Source of the DNA: Thermoanaerobaculia bacterium | Lineage (GTDB): Bacteria > Acidobacteriota > Thermoanaerobaculia > Gp7-AA8 | Direction of reading: 5' to 3' | Assembly: GCA_036009105.1 (NCBI GenBank) | Contig: DASYMJ010000043.1 | Location: forward strand, 25,658 to 89,657 | DNA length: 64,000 nt | Shown here: positions 11,243 to 64,000 of the stretch, piece after piece | Layout of the letters: each line of letters opens with the position of its first letter | Numbering within the stretch: position 1 is the first letter of the stretch | Translations under genes and position numbers: made by a program | Notes under the pieces: generated by a model | Databases searched by the model: none | What the model was told of the DNA's origin: nothing | The model's input: the letters and a program-made list of their open reading frames with translations, nothing else

Positions 11243-11325
11243 GAATTGAGAATTGAGAATTGAGAATTGAAAAGAAGGCGAAGTCACCAGCCCATTTTCA
11301 ATTTTCAATTTTCAATTTTCAATTC
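11243..11325. repeat. Perfect palindrome of GAATTGA heptamer arrays at a divergent promoter
   Basis: The sequence is gaattgagaattgagaattgagaattgaaaag...ttttcaattttcaattttcaattttcaattc. Four heptamers on each arm are reverse-complementary. Confidence 0.75.
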
Positions 11326-55182: not shown

Positions 55183-57297
<2,115 letters not shown>

Positions 57298-57305
57298 GGG
57301 GCCCC

Positions 57306-57473
57306 TTACGCCTCGTCGTCCTTGCGGCTCCGGGCCACCCGTTGCCGCAGCTCCTCGATCCGTTTGACGAGGCGGTCGGTCTCGCCGCTGGAGGTGTTCG
57401 TGCTCTCCAGCAGATCGTCAATGCTGCGTCGTTGACGTTTGACCTGTTCCAGAAATTCGTCGAGCTCGGCCAT
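57306..57473 (-). CDS. Small coiled-coil hypothetical protein
   Basis: About 55 aa (MAELDEFLEQVKRQRRSIDDLLESTNTSSGETDRLVKRIEELRQRVARSRKDDEA) with moderate GC3 bias. It sits between copA and the second receiver gene, and the start is uncertain. Confidence 0.3.
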   Translation of the reverse strand: MAELDEFLEQVKRQRRSIDDLLESTNTSSGETDRLVKRIEELRQRVARSRKDDEA

Positions 57474-57526
57474 CGCGTAAAAGTCCGAATTCTGGGGCAA
57501 AGCAAATCGTCTGCCTGATCCGTGAG

Positions 57527-57991
57527 GTGCGCGATTTGCAAGCAGCTCACGCAACTGTGACGGCTACCCCATCCATTCTGATCGTCGAGGACGATCCGGC
57601 CATCCGCTCCATGCTCCTGTCCGCCCTGCGCCGGGAGCCTCTGCACGTCGAGGCCGCCAGCGACGGCGTGGAGGTGCTGGAGAAAGCGCGGGAGGGCCAC
57701 TTCGCCGTCGTCATCGTCGACCTGATGATGCCGCGCATGGATGGCTTCACTTTCATCGAGGAGTTGCAGAAATTGCGCGGGGAGCCGCGCCCCATCGTCT
57801 TCGTCATGACCGCCTACGACGAGGCGATGCTGCGCCGCCTGGAGCCGGGCAGCGTCCACGCCTTCATCCGCAAGCCGTTCGACATCAGCATGTTCGTCGA
57901 CGTGATCCGCGACTGCGCGGACGCGGTGGCCGAGGTGGGCGAGCCGTATCTCCCGCCCCTCGGGATCGCCCGCGAAGACAACGTCTGCTAG
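57527..57991 (+). CDS. Stand-alone response-regulator receiver domain (CheY-like), paralogue of 54638-55117
   Basis: It has IVEDDPAIRSML, VVIVDLMMPRMDGF and TAY...RKPF. The receiver core is alignable with the upstream receiver gene across its whole length. Confidence 0.85.
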   Translation: MRDLQAAHATVTATPSILIVEDDPAIRSMLLSALRREPLHVEAASDGVEVLEKAREGHFAVVIVDLMMPRMDGFTFIEELQKLRGEPRPIVFVMTAYDEAMLRRLEPGSVHAFIRKPFDISMFVDVIRDCADAVAEVGEPYLPPLGIAREDNVC

Positions 57992-58308
57992 TCGGCGATC
58001 CGCGCCAGGTGCGCCACGTCCTCGCCCGCCACGAGCCAGAACTGGTTGCGCGCGCCGTCCACGCGCTGCTTGCGGAAGGGCGCGTACTCCGGGCTGTCGT
58101 AAAACGCGAACAGCGCCTCGCGCGACGGCCACTCGATGAGCAGAAAGATCTGCGGCCGCTGCCGCTCGCCCTCGATCACCTCCACGTGCGAGGTCCGGGC
58201 GAGGTACCGGCCGCCGGCGCGCTCGACCATCGCGGTCACGTTCTTGACGTACTCCGGCACCCAGCTCGGGTCGGTGATGTCCATTTCGGCTGCGCAGTAG
58301 TACTTCAT
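57988..58308 (-). CDS. DUF1330 domain protein
   Basis: 106 aa matching the DUF1330 pattern (MKYY...ITDP...YV...GGRYLAR...EVIEGE...IEWPS...AFYDSPEY). Confidence 0.7.
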   Translation of the reverse strand: MKYYCAAEMDITDPSWVPEYVKNVTAMVERAGGRYLARTSHVEVIEGERQRPQIFLLIEWPSREALFAFYDSPEYAPFRKQRVDGARNQFWLVAGEDVAHLARIAD

Positions 58309-58748
58309 GATTCGATCATCACCTCATTGATGCGGATCTCGTTCGTCAGCGTCTTGTACACCGGGCAGCGCCGCGCGATGTCGGTCAGCTTCGTCTTCTG
58401 CTCCGGCGTGAGGTTGCCGAGGAACTTCATCTTCACGTCGAAACGATGGATGTAGCCGCTGGTGGTGAGGCAGTCGGCGCAGTCCCTGGCGTACATCCGA
58501 TCGTTCAGGATGGTCACCTCGACGCCTTCCAGGGGGATGGAATCGCGTTTGGCGATGAAGTGCAGCGTCATCGCCGTGCAGGACCCGAGGGCGGCGGCGA
58601 GGAAGTCGTACGGGGTAGGGCCGCCCTCGCTGCCGCCCGCTGACGCCGGCTCGTCGGCGATCATCTTGAACGTTCCGGTGTCGATCTCCGTGCGGAAGCT
58701 GTTGCCGGCTCTGACGGTCACTGCGCCCATGGCGTCTTTTCCTTTCAT
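58305..58748 (-). CDS. OsmC/Ohr family peroxiredoxin-like protein
   Basis: OsmC fold motifs are GGSEGGPTPYDFLAAALGSCTAMTL and a second Cys segment (RRCPVYKTL). Confidence 0.8.
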   Translation of the reverse strand: MKGKDAMGAVTVRAGNSFRTEIDTGTFKMIADEPASAGGSEGGPTPYDFLAAALGSCTAMTLHFIAKRDSIPLEGVEVTILNDRMYARDCADCLTTSGYIHRFDVKMKFLGNLTPEQKTKLTDIARRCPVYKTLTNEIRINEVMIES

Positions 58749-58769
58749 CGATCATCATGGCACCCCTGC

Positions 58770-59429
58770 ATGACTGAAGAACAGGTCTTCTGGCTGGCCC
58801 TCGGCGGCTTCGCGCTGCTCTTCGCGCTCCTGATGATCTACGCCTCGAAGCGGTCGTCGAAGCGGCAGCAGATCTTCACCCGCATCGCGCAGGAGCTCGG
58901 GATCCAGGACGTCCGCCGCTCCTGGCTGGTCGGCGCCGGCGTGCGCGGCACCTGGAATGGCTACCCCGTCCGCCAGCAGCTCCTCGGCCGCTACAAAGGG
59001 GTCCCCGAGCGGCTGCTCACGACCGTCACCCTGCAGAGCCCGGGACGGATCATGATCACGCGCCGGGTCGGCAAGGTGCTGAGCAAGCCGATGACGCTCT
59101 TCGGCCCGAAGCTGGTGACGCCGATGACGCCCGCCGTCCAGGAGCGCTTCTGGGTGCGCAGCGATCAGCCCGCGTTCGTGGAGCGTTTCTTCGCCTCATC
59201 CGAGGCCGTGCCGCTGCTGGAGCAGAATCTGATCGAGCGCTTCGATCTGGTCGACCTCAACGCGCGGCGCCTCCTGGTCCGCCGCGCCACGGACGAGCGC
59301 CAGGTGCGCGCCAGGTACGGCATCGCCACCATCAACTTCAAGCGCGACATGCGCTACATCGAGACCATCGCCCGCGAGGAATGGGCGCTGGCCACGATGA
59401 TCATCCGCGAGCTGTCGCTGCGGCCGTGA
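58770..59429 (+). CDS. Hypothetical membrane-anchored protein
   Basis: There is an N-terminal TM helix (FWLALGGFALLFALLMIYA). The frame is GC3-rich. I recognise no known domain. Confidence 0.5.
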   Translation: MTEEQVFWLALGGFALLFALLMIYASKRSSKRQQIFTRIAQELGIQDVRRSWLVGAGVRGTWNGYPVRQQLLGRYKGVPERLLTTVTLQSPGRIMITRRVGKVLSKPMTLFGPKLVTPMTPAVQERFWVRSDQPAFVERFFASSEAVPLLEQNLIERFDLVDLNARRLLVRRATDERQVRARYGIATINFKRDMRYIETIAREEWALATMIIRELSLRP

Positions 59430-59480
59430 GCTTCGGCACCATCGGCGGCGGCTGGCGCGCCGGGCGGCGTTGATGCGCCC

Positions 59481-59993
59481 CTACCCCTCGTGTAGATCCA
59501 TCGGCAGCACGATGCCGATCAGCCACTTGCCCTTCCGCTGCGCCATCGGCACCCAGTACCACTGCGCGTCGCGGCCGGCCAGGGAGAGGCGGGCCAGCAC
59601 GCCCGCTTCCTGCGGCGCGAAGGGATTCACGAACGGCGCGGACAGCTGCAGCACCATCTCGTCGTGCGCGTCGGGATTCACGGCCGTGATGGGGCGCCAG
59701 CGGCATTGGTCGGTGACGCGCACCGGCAGCGGCTGTTGCAGCGCGCTCATCGACTGCGCCAGCGCGGAGGGGTTGCCGGCCCGGTTGTACATCGCGCCGA
59801 GGGCCTGCATGGAGCGGATGCTCACCAGCGGCTGCGTCGTCTGCACGATGGCGATCGTGGCGTCGCCGGAGATCGCCTCGCCGCGCAGGCGGCCGCACAT
59901 CGCATCGGTGACCACCGCCGGCACGTCGTCCCAGGTAGGCGGCTCGATGGGCGGCTTGGTCGCGCAGGCGGCGGCCAGCAGCAGGGAGATCAT
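59481..59993 (-). CDS. Hypothetical lipoprotein
   Basis: Start is placed at the internal ATG, giving the lipoprotein signal MISLLLAAACATKPP. I recognise no known domain. Confidence 0.5.
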   Translation of the reverse strand: MISLLLAAACATKPPIEPPTWDDVPAVVTDAMCGRLRGEAISGDATIAIVQTTQPLVSIRSMQALGAMYNRAGNPSALAQSMSALQQPLPVRVTDQCRWRPITAVNPDAHDEMVLQLSAPFVNPFAPQEAGVLARLSLAGRDAQWYWVPMAQRKGKWLIGIVLPMDLHEG

Positions 59994-60085
59994 CAACAAC
60001 ACGCCCCTCACCCCGGCCCTCTCCTCCCCGCCGCGCGGGAAGAGGGTGCTCGAAGAGCGGGCGAGGGGCATCATCAACACACGTT

Positions 60086-62524
60086 TCATACGAGCCTCAA
60101 TTGCGGCGTCGCCTTCGCTTCGAAGAACGCCTGGATCTCGCTGGCTGCCCTGCGCGAGACCAGCTCGCGCGGCGAATCCTCGTACCAGTCGGGGGGGAAG
60201 TATCGCGCATACATCTCCTGGGTGAAGCGCTTGCAGAAGAGCGCGATGATGCCGACGTCCGTCTCGCTGCGGATCACCCGGCCGGCCGACTGCACCACCC
60301 GCGTCATGCCCGGAATGAGGTAGGCGAACTCGAAGCCGGCCCCGTACTGCTCGTCGTAATACTGCTTGAGCAGCTCCTGCTCGAAGCTCACCTGCGGCAG
60401 CGCCGGCCCGATCACCATCACCCCGGACAGCATGTCTCCCTGGTAGTCGACCCCCTCCGCGTACATGCCGCCCGAGACGCCGAGGATCAGGTTGCCCCGC
60501 TCCGGCCGGTCGCGGAGGATGGTCAGGATGGCGTTGCGCTCGTAGTCCGTCATGTCGCTGCGCTGCGTCATCACGTTCTTGCGCAGCGGCGGCATGCGCT
60601 CCGCCACCTCGCGCAGGAACGCATAGCTGGGGAAGAGGGCCAGGAAGTTGCCGTCGTTCGCCTCCGCGATGTCCGCCACCGTGGTGGCGATGCGCTCGTA
60701 ATGACTCGCCCGATGCTTGTACGTCGTATCCACCTCGGAGACGATGACGATTTTCCGGTTCTCGCGGGGGAAGGGGGAGGGGAGGGAGAGCTCGGCGCAG
60801 CGGTCGTTGGGGATGCCGAGGGTCTTGCGGTAAAAGTCGAACGGCTCGAGCGTGGCGGAGAGGGCGATGGTGGCGTGCGCGGAGTCGAAGATCTTGCCCA
60901 GGAATCCCGAAGGGTCCTTGCAGAAGATCTTCAGCTTGTAGCCCTCATTCGTCTTCTCGATGAGGTGCGCCAGCGCCTCGGAGTCTTCGCCGAGGAGATT
61001 GGCGAACTTGACCAGCTTGAAGTAGAAGTCGATCAGCGGGTCGTCCTCTTCGGCGATCCGGTTGTCAATCTTCCACCCGATGTAGGCCAGGACGATGCGC
61101 TCCCACTCCACCCGCTGCTCCAGGAAGAGCTCCCGGCTCGGCTCGCACAGGGCCTGCTTCATGCCGTGCTCCTCGTCGAGGACTTGTCCCAGCTCGTGGA
61201 TGTGATCGCGGAGCAGCTCGAGCAGCTCTTCCCAGCCGTCGATCCAGCAGTTGCGGCCGTGCAGGTGGTTGCGGATCTGCTCGAACTGGGCCTCGGAAAT
61301 CTCCGGGGAGTAGTAGCCGCGTCCCCGCTCGACCAGGTTGTGCGCCTCGTCCACGACCAGTACACAATCGCCGTAGTCGTTCTCCTGCTGGTAGGCTTTG
61401 AGACCGACGTACGGATCGAAGATGTAGTTGTAGTCGCAGATGACGACGTCGGCCTGGTCGATCAGCTCCAGCGAGACCTCGAACGGGCAGACCTCCGTGG
61501 AGCGGGCCATCTCGAAGGTGATGTCGGGATCGAAGTAGCTCATCCCGGTGGCGATGCGGGAGAGCAACCCGCTCTTTTCCATCTTCTCGGAGTAGCGCGC
61601 CGCGAAGGGGCAGAAGTCCTCGTGGCAGATCATCTCCGTGTGGGCGCACATCTTCTGCTTGGCCCGGATGCGCAGCACGCGGAAGGAGCCGTCGTTGAGC
61701 ATGTTCAGCGCCTGGACGGCCGCTTCCTGCTGGAGCGTTTTTGAGGTGAGGACGAACAGCTTCTTGCCCAGCTTCAGCGACTGCTTCACCGCCGGATAGA
61801 GCACGGCGATGGTCTTGCCGATGCCGGTCGGCGCGGAGAGAAGCAGCGCCTCCTGCTGGTACACGGCCCGGGCCACGGCGCTGACGATGTCTTCCTGGTA
61901 CGGCCGCATCCGGTCGTACGGGAACTGCAGCTGATCGGCGAAGGCCCGCTTCGCCACGGCCAGCGCCTCGGCCGTCTCGATGCTGTCCACGAGCTTGGCC
62001 AGGCTGGCGTGCAGCGTGTCCAGGACCTTGTTGCGATCGAAGTCGGTGTCGATCAGCTTGGCCTCGCCGGAGACGAGGTCGATCAGGACCAGCTGGGGGA
62101 GGAACTCGAAACCGGCAAAGTCGGGCTGGTCGGAGAGGAAGAAGGCGTAGAGCAGCAGTTGATACAGATGCCGCTGCAATTTCTCCGACCTGTAGAGTGC
62201 CTCCAGCTCCAGGTCAAAATGGATGGATTTAACCTCTTCGATGGAAACGAGTTTCTTCTCCCGGTCGACGGAGAGCCCGTCGATGCGCCCGGTGACGGTG
62301 ATGGACCATCTGCCGAGCTGGGTCCGATGCACCACGTGCACCTCGGCCTTGTAGTGCGGATCCTCGGCCGCCCGCTCCTCGGCGCGCCTGGTGTGGATGT
62401 CCTGCCCGATCCACATCCGCCGGAACCCATCCCCCCGCTCCACCCCGATGCGGCGATACGTCGACTCATGAACGAGGTCGCCCACCGAGCAGACGATCTC
62501 CCGTTTCTGATGATCGACGCGCAT
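60086..62524 (-). CDS. XPD/DinG-family Fe-S DNA helicase with N-terminal PD-(D/E)xK nuclease-like domain
   Basis: The helicase core has SAPTGIGKT (Walker A), DEAH (VVDEAHNL), four Cys (CAHTEMICHEDFCPF...EVCPF) and the C-terminal motifs GVSGGMYAEGVDYQGD and QSAGRVIR. The N-terminal ~190 aa carry D...E-x-K (GRIDGLSVD...SIEEVKS). Confidence 0.8.
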   Translation of the reverse strand: MRVDHQKREIVCSVGDLVHESTYRRIGVERGDGFRRMWIGQDIHTRRAEERAAEDPHYKAEVHVVHRTQLGRWSITVTGRIDGLSVDREKKLVSIEEVKSIHFDLELEALYRSEKLQRHLYQLLLYAFFLSDQPDFAGFEFLPQLVLIDLVSGEAKLIDTDFDRNKVLDTLHASLAKLVDSIETAEALAVAKRAFADQLQFPYDRMRPYQEDIVSAVARAVYQQEALLLSAPTGIGKTIAVLYPAVKQSLKLGKKLFVLTSKTLQQEAAVQALNMLNDGSFRVLRIRAKQKMCAHTEMICHEDFCPFAARYSEKMEKSGLLSRIATGMSYFDPDITFEMARSTEVCPFEVSLELIDQADVVICDYNYIFDPYVGLKAYQQENDYGDCVLVVDEAHNLVERGRGYYSPEISEAQFEQIRNHLHGRNCWIDGWEELLELLRDHIHELGQVLDEEHGMKQALCEPSRELFLEQRVEWERIVLAYIGWKIDNRIAEEDDPLIDFYFKLVKFANLLGEDSEALAHLIEKTNEGYKLKIFCKDPSGFLGKIFDSAHATIALSATLEPFDFYRKTLGIPNDRCAELSLPSPFPRENRKIVIVSEVDTTYKHRASHYERIATTVADIAEANDGNFLALFPSYAFLREVAERMPPLRKNVMTQRSDMTDYERNAILTILRDRPERGNLILGVSGGMYAEGVDYQGDMLSGVMVIGPALPQVSFEQELLKQYYDEQYGAGFEFAYLIPGMTRVVQSAGRVIRSETDVGIIALFCKRFTQEMYARYFPPDWYEDSPRELVSRRAASEIQAFFEAKATPQLRLV

Positions 62525-62630
62525 GGGGGTTATTGTAACCGGGGGGCAGCGGGCGGCGCGCAGCGAGCAGGAGGATCACTGAGCGGCGAGCAGGCCGTCC
62601 TCCTGCTCGCCGCGCGCGGTACGCCGCTCG

Positions 62631-64000
62631 CTAGTCCTGGCAGACCTTCACCACGAAGCACCCCTTGGTCTGGTACTGGTGGCACACCTCGAAGCAGACG
62701 CCTTCGAAGGACAGCCGGTAGTCCTTCCCCACCGCGCCGCGCGTGTAGAGCACGAGCTCGCGGGAGACGCAGCTCGCCCGGCGGGTGCAGGGGGGGATGT
62801 CGCCGAAGCAGAGGGGGCCGGAGGGGATGACCTGCACGGACGGCGTGCCGTCGGGGAGGGTGGGCACGGGGTTGCCGTCGGCATCCGTGATGTGGATCTG
62901 CCCGATGGTGAGGTCGCGGAACGTCACGTTCGAATAGCAGTTGCAGACCGTGACGCAGAGCACCTCGACGTCATCGGACTCCAGGCAGTCGCACTTGCTG
63001 TCGCCCCATGACACGGAGATGCACGGCTCGATGCGCGGGAAGTCGGCGGCCACGCAGTCGCAGCGGCAGTCGCCCTTCTCCGGCTCTCGGTCCGGGCAGT
63101 CGCAGTGCAGGCGCGGCAGCAGGTTCACCTTCGCCGCGCACTTTTTGGCGAGGACCGCGTTCTGTTCCCGCTCGATGTCCGCGCAGGTGCGGCAGGCGAT
63201 CTGGTAGTCATTCGGGCCGGTCTTGATCGTGCCGAGCGGCGTCGTGCCGATGGCGAGCGCGCCGGACGCGGCGAAGTCGAAGCTGCCCAGGGAGAGGTTG
63301 ATGCCGGGGATGCTGGCGGGCGTGATGTTGAAGCAGAACGAATTGCCGCTCGTCAAAACGGGGCTGGTCAGTTGCGTCAGCAACGCGCCGCTCTGATAGA
63401 TGTCGAGGGTGATGGTCAGCGTGCCGGTGTTGCCGCCGATTGTCGGGAGCGAGTAGTTGAAGCAGATGCGGCCCGGCCCGCAGTGGGAGCTGCCGTCGCA
63501 GTCGTACGTGAAATTGCCGGTCGGCGAGCCCTTGCAGTTGCCGCAGAAATTGTCGACGTACGCATAGCCCCAATGGGCGCCGCGGCCGCAGTCGGCCGTC
63601 ACGAATTCGATGGTGACCTGCTGGCCGATCATCGTGGAGAGATCAATCTGCGCGCAGCTCCAGTCTTTGTAGACGATCGGCTCCTCGCCCGGCTTGAGGA
63701 GAGTCTGGAAGAAGGGATTGTTCACATCGGCGGAGAGCGTGTCCGAGCCGTTCCCGAAGTCGAACGCAGCCGGAACGACCGTGCGGGCGGCGTTCGTGAC
63801 CCGCACCTGGAAGTAGGGCTGCAGGTTCGTCGGATGACCGGCCGGATTCTGCAGCACGACCGCATACCAGAAGGTGATCGTGCGCTGCGCCGGCGTGACG
63901 ATGAACGTCTTCGACAGCAGCTCGCAACCGAAGTTCGCGACGGTGTTCCCGATGCGCACCGCGCCGGTCGAGCCCTGCGCCGTGGTGGGGATGCCGACGA
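62631..64000 (-). CDS. Cys-rich hypothetical protein (probably secreted), 5'-partial, continuing beyond window end
   Basis: The frame stays open from 62631 past 64000. The C-terminal third has about 30 Cys in CxC/CDC patterns (HCDCPDREPEKGDCRCDCVAADF...CDCLESDDVEVLCVTVCNCY). The track start at 63959 is only the first GTG. Confidence 0.6.
   Translation of the reverse strand, partial: VGIPTTAQGSTGAVRIGNTVANFGCELLSKTFIVTPAQRTITFWYAVVLQNPAGHPTNLQPYFQVRVTNAARTVVPAAFDFGNGSDTLSADVNNPFFQTLLKPGEEPIVYKDWSCAQIDLSTMIGQQVTIEFVTADCGRGAHWGYAYVDNFCGNCKGSPTGNFTYDCDGSSHCGPGRICFNYSLPTIGGNTGTLTITLDIYQSGALLTQLTSPVLTSGNSFCFNITPASIPGINLSLGSFDFAASGALAIGTTPLGTIKTGPNDYQIACRTCADIEREQNAVLAKKCAAKVNLLPRLHCDCPDREPEKGDCRCDCVAADFPRIEPCISVSWGDSKCDCLESDDVEVLCVTVCNCYSNVTFRDLTIGQIHITDADGNPVPTLPDGTPSVQVIPSGPLCFGDIPPCTRRASCVSRELVLYTRGAVGKDYRLSFEGVCFEVCHQYQTKGCFVVKVCQD

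Follow-up and report, generated by a model that had tools for sequence, protein, structure and literature searches.

The gene at positions 60086..62524 (minus strand) of the window, by which we mean the whole 64-kb (64,000-nucleotide) stretch of Thermoanaerobaculia DNA analysed here, very probably encodes an EndoDinG, i.e. an N-terminal Cas4/RecB-type PD-(D/E)xK endonuclease carried on an XPD-like 5'-3' iron-sulphur (Fe-S) helicase, and less securely one with a stand-alone role of the repair type. The EndoDinG subgroup, comprising DinG-like helicases with an N-terminal PD-(D/E)xK nuclease domain, was defined in 2025 (PMC11981726), and the first EndoDinG structure and biochemistry, those of Finegoldia magna DinG (FmaDinG; PDB 9KQH), followed in July 2026 (PMC13650095). 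The nuclease-helicase fusion that a preliminary description of this DNA had proposed was borne out by sequence, residue conservation and fold; as an open question, it had already been answered by the published EndoDinG subgroup (PMC11981726, PMC13650095, PDB 9KQH). The protein is an ordinary further member from an acidobacterial genome, of an architecture already named (2025) and characterised (2026), and it carries little weight as a discovery because publications of 2025-2026 had already described the architecture, the structure and the mechanism in vitro.

Domain architecture and active sites

The open reading frame (ORF) specifies 812 amino acids (aa), and its GC contents at the three codon positions (GC1/2/3) are 0.63/0.36/0.91 in a sequence of ~68% GC, a composition characteristic of a real gene. 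A protein of a Thermoanaerobaculia (Acidobacteriota) metagenome-assembled genome (MAG) matches it at 100% identity. All of the motifs previously quoted for it (Walker A, DEAH, the Fe-S cysteines, GVDYQGD, QSAGRVIR, and the D...E-x-K arrangement) were found in this ORF, and the acidic residue said to precede D-x(n)-E-x-K is E61. The features of the gene are as follows.

60086..62524, minus strand: gene assigned to EndoDinG; ORF of 812 aa, the range taking in the stop codon
61925..62524, minus strand: N-terminal PD-(D/E)xK (Cas4/RecB-type) nuclease domain, residues 1-200
62228..62395, minus strand: nuclease catalytic residues, namely H44 (62393-62395), E61 (62342-62344), R80 and D82 (62279-62287), and E97-x-K99 (62228-62236)
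62147..62161, minus strand: QxxxY motif, Q122-Y126; Q122 and Y126 invariant in 56 diverse members
60155..61924, minus strand: XPD/DinG-type superfamily 2 (SF2) helicase core, residues ~201-790; two motor domains with Fe-S and Arch insertions
61811..61837, minus strand: Walker A motif SAPTGIGKT, residues 230-238; G234, G236, and K237 invariant family-wide
61340..61351, minus strand: DEAH box, residues 392-395; D392, E393, and H395 invariant
61487..61648, minus strand: Fe-S domain with four cysteines, C293, C300, C305, and C346
60269..60292, minus strand: helicase motif VI, QSAGRVIR, residues 745-752; G748, R749, and R752 invariant

The N-terminal string TGRIDGLSVDREKKLVSIEEVKS starts at residue 78 and holds D82 and E97-V-K99, and the QxxxY motif further along the same domain is a motif of RecB/Cas4-type nucleases. 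The Fe-S motif strings are CAHTEMICHEDFCPF at residue 293 and EVCPF at residue 344, and GVDYQGD is located at residue 691.

A phmmer search of PDB retrieved the FmaDinG chain 9kqh_A with an expect value (E) of 3.5e-86 over residues 7-780, i.e. with the N-terminal region included, at an overall identity of 28% (812 aa versus 748 aa). Pfam reported DEAD_2, HBB, and Helicase_C_2, i.e. only the helicase. When the N-terminal domain (NTD) was used alone, Pfam returned no family (residues 1-203, even at E <= 10) and phmmer returned no match in PDB, and its homology becomes apparent only through the full-length alignment, pairwise BLASTP against the FmaDinG NTD (28% identity, E = 4e-8), and the fold. 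In the alignment, H40, E54, R73, D75, E88, and K90 of FmaDinG are paired with H44, E61, R80, D82, E97, and K99, respectively. FmaDinG is an Mn2+-preferring single-stranded DNA (ssDNA) endonuclease and a 5'-3' helicase with an Fe-S cluster, whose nuclease digests into duplex DNA through ATP-driven translocation; cleavage was nearly abolished in the H40A, E54A, R73A, D75A, E88A, and K90A mutants, and the ATPase-dead D378A mutant lost ATP-dependent digestion (PMC13650095). In the crystal, the cluster occupies a site equivalent to the four-cysteine domain, and a gate segment (residues 18-28) reportedly switches from helix to loop upon DNA entry (PMC13650095).

The likeness to FmaDinG extends to the domain order (NTD nuclease, motor domain 1 with Fe-S and Arch insertions, motor domain 2), the catalytic H/E/D/E/K residues and the arginine, the four Fe-S cysteines, Walker A, the DEAH box, and motif VI; the two proteins are alignable from end to end, and FmaDinG is the top structural match whether the whole protein or only its NTD is compared. 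As in the definition of the subgroup, the nuclease domain precedes the helicase core and carries the conserved H (alpha2), E (beta2), D (beta3), and E and K (beta4). The differences are the identity of only 28%, the greater length of the protein encoded in the window, the replacement of R10 of FmaDinG by G15, and a gene that is apparently leaderless and coupled to a small lipoprotein-like gene.

The full-length AlphaFold2 model was of high confidence (predicted local distance difference test, pLDDT, 93.2; predicted template modelling score, pTM, 0.92) and was of low confidence only at residues ~21-40, which match the gate segment of FmaDinG. In a Foldseek search with this model, 9kqh_A was ranked first (E = 3.5e-57 over 786 columns; template modelling scores, TM, 0.72/0.78), followed by archaeal XPD (~1e-34), Escherichia coli DinG (~1e-27), and CasDinG (~1e-18), and DdmD and Hna were weak matches (E from 1e-13 to 1e-10). 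Structural comparison of the NTD by itself gave the following figures.

9KQH, 16.9; Cas4 SSO0001, 13.8; MGME1, 12.2; EXO5, 11.9
Cas4-Cas1, 11.7; RecE, 11.0; Dna2, 10.1; AdnAB, 9.9
lambda exonuclease, 9.4; AddA, 9.3; RecB, 8.9

On the strength of this ranking, the NTD is a bona fide Cas4/RecB-type nuclease domain, and the structure check suggested earlier for residues ~1-200 thus yielded a nuclease fold. The NTD contains a single cysteine (C12), and therefore the only cluster site of the protein is located in the helicase.

Conservation of both active sites was examined at two levels. In 21 Thermoanaerobaculia orthologues (79-96% identity), D82, E97, K99, E61, H44, R80, and the four cysteines are invariant. 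When residues 1-200 were used in an exhaustive HMMER search against 1.84 billion representative proteins, only 188 matches were obtained at E <= 1e-3; among the matches listed, those of full length are all 745-896 aa long with the domain at the extreme N-terminus, and the shorter ones are indistinguishable from fragments at contig ends. Full-length proteins that share 23-65% identity with the query, 56 in number, were also aligned; the NTD positions that do not vary among them are G40, H44, E61, G79, R80, D82, E97, K99, Q122, and Y126, and an NTD-only alignment gave the same positions. The Fe-S cysteines C293, C300, C305, and C346 are at least 90% conserved across these 56 proteins. The nuclease and motor active sites are thus intact and under strong purifying selection, and the invariance of the catalytic residues in so many orthologues places the D-E-x-K pattern far beyond a chance motif match.

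By homology to FmaDinG, from which we infer an Mn2+-preferring endonuclease coupled to ATP-dependent 5'-3' unwinding, the XPD-type motor would load on a 5' single-stranded tail, move in the 5'-3' direction at the expense of ATP, and unwind the duplex. The opposite, 3'-ended strand would be threaded past the flexible gate (residues ~21-40) to the nuclease site and may be cut there endonucleolytically at a predicted metal site formed by H44, E61, D82, E97, and K99. Digestion would be expected to enter the duplex only during ATP hydrolysis.

Comparison with related systems and alternative explanations

Among helicases without a nuclease, the XPD/Rad3 proteins of archaea and eukaryotes (e.g. Thermoplasma acidophilum XPD, PDB 4A15 and 9P55) are the closest. 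They share the helicase core and the 4Fe-4S and Arch domains and represent the second-best match in both sequence (E ~1e-38) and fold (~1e-34), ahead of E. coli DinG, but they have no counterpart of the additional 200-aa nuclease domain. Public records name EndoDinGs 'ATP-dependent DNA helicase' or 'ERCC-2', and the helicase core matches the rad3, YoaA, and DinG models, as would be expected if the protein were simply a housekeeping orthologue of XPD, DinG, or YoaA to which an unrelated N-terminal extension had been added. We regard this explanation as scarcely credible, however: the scores remained below the NCBIfam cut-offs for TIGR00604 rad3 (174.2 versus 246.95), YoaA NF053712 (125 versus 680), and DinG NF008729 (116 versus 598), and a nuclease fold, in which the catalytic residues are conserved, was predicted with confidence for the extension. 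It is somewhat less remote, but still very unlikely, that the NTD is a degenerate, non-catalytic nuclease fold that serves only in binding or guiding DNA, like the pseudo-exonuclease of pExoDinG, and that the protein is merely a helicase. Inactive nuclease-like domains have been described among DinG relatives (PMC11981726), the NTD is missed by the Pfam nuclease models, and the R10 counterpart is a glycine; nevertheless, H44, E61, D82, E97, K99, R80, and QxxxY are invariant down to 23% overall identity, a pattern expected only under selected catalysis, and the homologous domain of FmaDinG is an active endonuclease that needs the same residues (PMC13650095). Nuclease-helicase fusions are common in defence, and a third explanation is that the protein is a defence or CRISPR (clustered regularly interspaced short palindromic repeats) enzyme, either a CasDinG-like type IV accessory or a stand-alone anti-phage or anti-plasmid DNA shredder resembling DdmD or Hna, both of which were among the weak fold matches. 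The authors of the FmaDinG study also leave open a defence against mobile elements (PMC13650095). The PADLOC check gave, as its best model, a strong match to PDLC01439 ('typeIV_DinG; CAS-IV-A; associated', E = 4e-109), but this match is limited to the helicase core (residues 196-787), and the Csf4-specific models scored far below threshold (49, 24, and 18 bits for PADLOC Csf4_0, Csf4_1, and Csf4_2, respectively; 26.2 for TIGR03117 versus a cut-off of 400). Since it covers only the core, fails the Csf4 models, and has no cas or CRISPR context, we rejected the match as a link to CRISPR and read it as generic Rad3/DinG core similarity; PDLC01439 may be a general COG1199 profile inherited from collections of CRISPR profiles.

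The genomic context does not favour a defence role either. No CRISPR-type repeat array was found in the window, and no cas or defence genes were found within ~10 kb on either side of the gene in the source contig, where the nearby genes are housekeeping ones (OsmC, DUF1330, response regulators, copper ATPase, and asparagine synthase); in PADLOC, the flanking genes had no matches except for a weak AAA+ similarity of a DnaC-like ATPase. All four Fe-S cysteines are kept, unlike those of CasDinG, which has a degenerate pseudo-FeS module (PMC13650095) and whose structures came well behind those of XPD and DinG in the Foldseek ranking. The ~80% identity and fixed synteny of the gene in many genomes are unlike the patchy distribution of defence genes, and there was no neighbour common to the 80 loci, from 80 genomes of many phyla, whose ORFs were clustered in our survey. 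The earlier hint of an anti-phage or CRISPR accessory module is thus not sustained by the neighbourhood, and we consider the defence explanation improbable. A little more room, although still only a slight chance, is left for the idea that EndoDinG is a self-contained innate-immunity or plasmid-elimination enzyme of the core genome (DdmD/Hna-like), or that it is the main DNA-end resection machine replacing RecBCD/AddAB in, for example, Thermoanaerobaculia, with lineage-specific partners such as an Exo-GIY-YIG nuclease (see below).

The context of the gene, which we weigh less securely than its family assignment, suggests a stand-alone role in chromosomal DNA repair or in the processing of replication intermediates, with a logic like that of Dna2 or AddAB, and a gene that is vertically inherited in Thermoanaerobaculia under its own promoter. 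Its syntenic, core-like occurrence and apparent own promoter in this class favour stand-alone housekeeping repair over defence. Several points weigh against the assignment to an EndoDinG with such a role. The activity, polarity, and metal preference ascribed to the protein would be transferred from a homologue of 28% identity, and the details of the gate may differ, given that G15 stands in the place of the substrate-binding R10. Synteny in one clade could reflect shared ancestry alone, a single-gene defence function may be compatible with a neighbourhood free of defence genes, and the PADLOC match described above is a strong one.

The EndoDinG architecture is also distinct from other combinations of a nuclease with a motor. 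The Cas4, MGME1, EXO5, RecE, and RecB-family nucleases are at most 18% identical to the NTD, which is carried here on an SF2 XPD motor, and the NTD lacks the Fe-S cluster that a 2025 review ascribes to Cas4, EXO5, AddA, and Dna2 (PMC11981726). Neither the stand-alone or Cas1-fused form, the four-cysteine Fe-S cluster, nor the cas operon of Cas4 was found for this gene. Dna2, AddAB, and AdnAB likewise pair a RecB-type nuclease, within one polypeptide or as part of a complex, with a motor that supplies it with ssDNA, but their motors belong to superfamily 1 (SF1), their domain order and subunits are different, and our data contain no evidence of Chi recognition or of RPA/SSB coupling in the present protein. 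ExoDinG, CasDinG, and CasDinG-HNH also combine a DinG-like helicase with a nuclease, either acquired by the helicase itself or working alongside it. The N-terminal domain of ExoDinG (Staphylococcus aureus/Bacillus subtilis) is, however, a DnaQ-like DEDD 3'-5' exonuclease and not a PD-(D/E)xK domain, and the ExoDinG models TIGR01407 and NF005981 match only a helicase part of our protein (residues 543-776). The gene for CasDinG is a neighbour of type IV cas genes, and the HNH domain of CasDinG, if there is one, is C-terminal; neither applies here. The nuclease domain of EndoDinG is missed by all of the Pfam, NCBIfam, and PADLOC models, which constitutes an annotation gap, and PADLOC can mislabel EndoDinGs as type IV DinG.

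Distribution and recurring neighbours

Relatives of the query were confirmed by tblastn in at least 597 species-representative genomes, a count that may include proteins without the nuclease domain. The 80 genomes of the neighbour survey include members of Acidobacteriota, Verrucomicrobiota, Entotheonella, Bdellovibrionota, Melainabacteria, Nitrospirota, Myxococcota, and Desulfuromonadales and two archaeal MAGs. The family is thus much broader than the six bacterial orders of the published study (PMC13650095) and includes Asgard-archaeal MAGs; Thermoanaerobaculia, the host of the present gene, is not among these orders, which include Acanthopleuribacterales. The published description takes the subgroup as bacterial. 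Full-length archaeal EndoDinGs are encoded at L062:6001-8367 (a Promethearchaeia MAG, Asgard) and L063:6001-8352 (an uncultured archaeon), with 32% identity over residues 1-801 and 1-791, respectively, the nuclease domain included.

No neighbour family was present in more than 10 of the 80 loci as a conserved partner, and none extended beyond the sub-clade of the window. The sole adjacency that crosses phyla is a gene located immediately downstream of EndoDinG in five loci of Bdellovibrionota and Melainabacteria/Cyanobacteriota, which encodes an Exo-GIY-YIG protein of 519-650 aa with a DnaQ-like exonuclease (RNase_T) and a GIY-YIG domain. These genes lie -79 to +26 nucleotides (nt) from the EndoDinG stop codon, and their N-terminal motif is D-x-Q-TTG instead of D-x-E.

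L083:8322-9881, same strand as EndoDinG: Exo-GIY-YIG gene
L071:8259-9839, same strand as EndoDinG: Exo-GIY-YIG gene
L068:8291-10072, same strand as EndoDinG: Exo-GIY-YIG gene
L072:8348-10114, same strand as EndoDinG: Exo-GIY-YIG gene
L075:8339-10291, same strand as EndoDinG: Exo-GIY-YIG gene

Exo-GIY-YIG has the architecture of a Cho/UvrC-like repair nuclease, and its adjacency therefore points toward DNA repair. No homologue of it was found in the window, and the term GIY-YIG is absent from the 2025 DinG review (PMC11981726). Together with the context of the Thermoanaerobaculia genes, this adjacency in two other phyla provides leads to the in vivo function of EndoDinG. In four Verrucomicrobiota loci (L049, L050, L051, and L055), a protein of 685-689 aa that is squalene-hopene cyclase-like, as judged from its N-terminal sequence only, is encoded downstream of EndoDinG, an arrangement that seems to be synteny particular to this lineage, without an evident link in function.

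Local neighbourhood of the gene

EndoDinG is highly conserved in Thermoanaerobaculia, where over 100 clusters match it along the full length with ~80% identity. The syntenic order consists of an aminotransferase, a ~315-aa protein, a DnaC/IstB-like AAA+ ATPase (opposite strand), a ~775-aa protein without Pfam domains, EndoDinG, and a small protein, with an asparagine synthase and a PMT-type glycosyltransferase further along the same conserved neighbourhood. The following features adjoin the gene in the window.

59481..60089, minus strand: small downstream gene, 202 aa as called, with a lipobox-like LLAAAC; GC3 0.94
62532..62537, minus strand: -10-like hexamer TACAAT, 7 nt upstream of the ATG; no Shine-Dalgarno sequence
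62556..62617, minus strand: long near-perfect inverted repeat (hairpin); RNA fold -65.3 kcal/mol, z = -6.9, 0/200 shuffles as stable
62631 to beyond 64000, minus strand: Cys-rich gene (full gene L085:8158-9894); 578 aa with 31 cysteines in the source contig

The start of the small downstream gene overlaps the helicase stop codon as ATGA, and the two genes are probably co-transcribed. Homologues (33-40% identity) occupy the same position in L001, L002, L004, and about nine further close loci; the gene has no family match and, among the loci compared, was absent beyond this close sub-clade, i.e. it is a clade-restricted neighbour.

The Cys-rich gene had been described as following EndoDinG, which holds in window coordinates only; in the direction of transcription it lies upstream. 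Together with a GNAT acetyltransferase gene, it apparently forms an insertion that separates the helicase gene from that of the ~775-aa protein. The Cys-rich protein had no match in Pfam, NCBIfam, or PADLOC, and no homologue was found beside the three orthologues tested. As a lineage-specific insertion with neither a family match nor a homologue beside orthologues, it was rejected as a partner. C-x-C and C-x-C-x-C clusters are present in the C-terminal third of the protein. In this clade, the gene upstream of EndoDinG on the same strand is usually that of the conserved ~775-aa protein (L085:5165-7492; homologues L001:4918-7230 and L002:5637-7988), which has no family match; in L002 the distance is only 13 nt. 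The protein contains an 'FLGDGAFY' stretch that may resemble nucleotidyl-cyclase motifs.

The spacer between the Cys-rich and helicase genes is 106 nt long and contains the very stable hairpin listed above. The hairpin has no U-tract and no other copy within the window, as a dispersed repeat would have, and is likely to be a terminator-like transcriptional boundary. Of 20 orthologous loci (L001-L020), nearly all have a TAnnAT hexamer 6-13 nt ahead of the start codon. Together with the lack of a Shine-Dalgarno sequence, this makes it probable that EndoDinG is transcribed from a promoter of its own into an mRNA with a very short leader or none; a strict scan for sigma-70 promoters and intrinsic terminators detected no full -35/-10 pair. 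The perfect palindrome GGTTA-CAA-TAACC before the ATG was considered as an operator and rejected, as it is not conserved and only the -10-like hexamer recurs. The sequence AATAACC(C) just ahead of the ATG is common to several orthologous loci. Rfam gave no match in 56000-64000.

Elsewhere in the window, at 11243-11324, two inverted heptamer arrays, (GAATTGA)x4 and (ATTTTCA)x4.4, both perfect and 23 nt apart, are located in an AT-rich intergenic spot of this 68% GC sequence and could represent a regulatory or protein-binding element.

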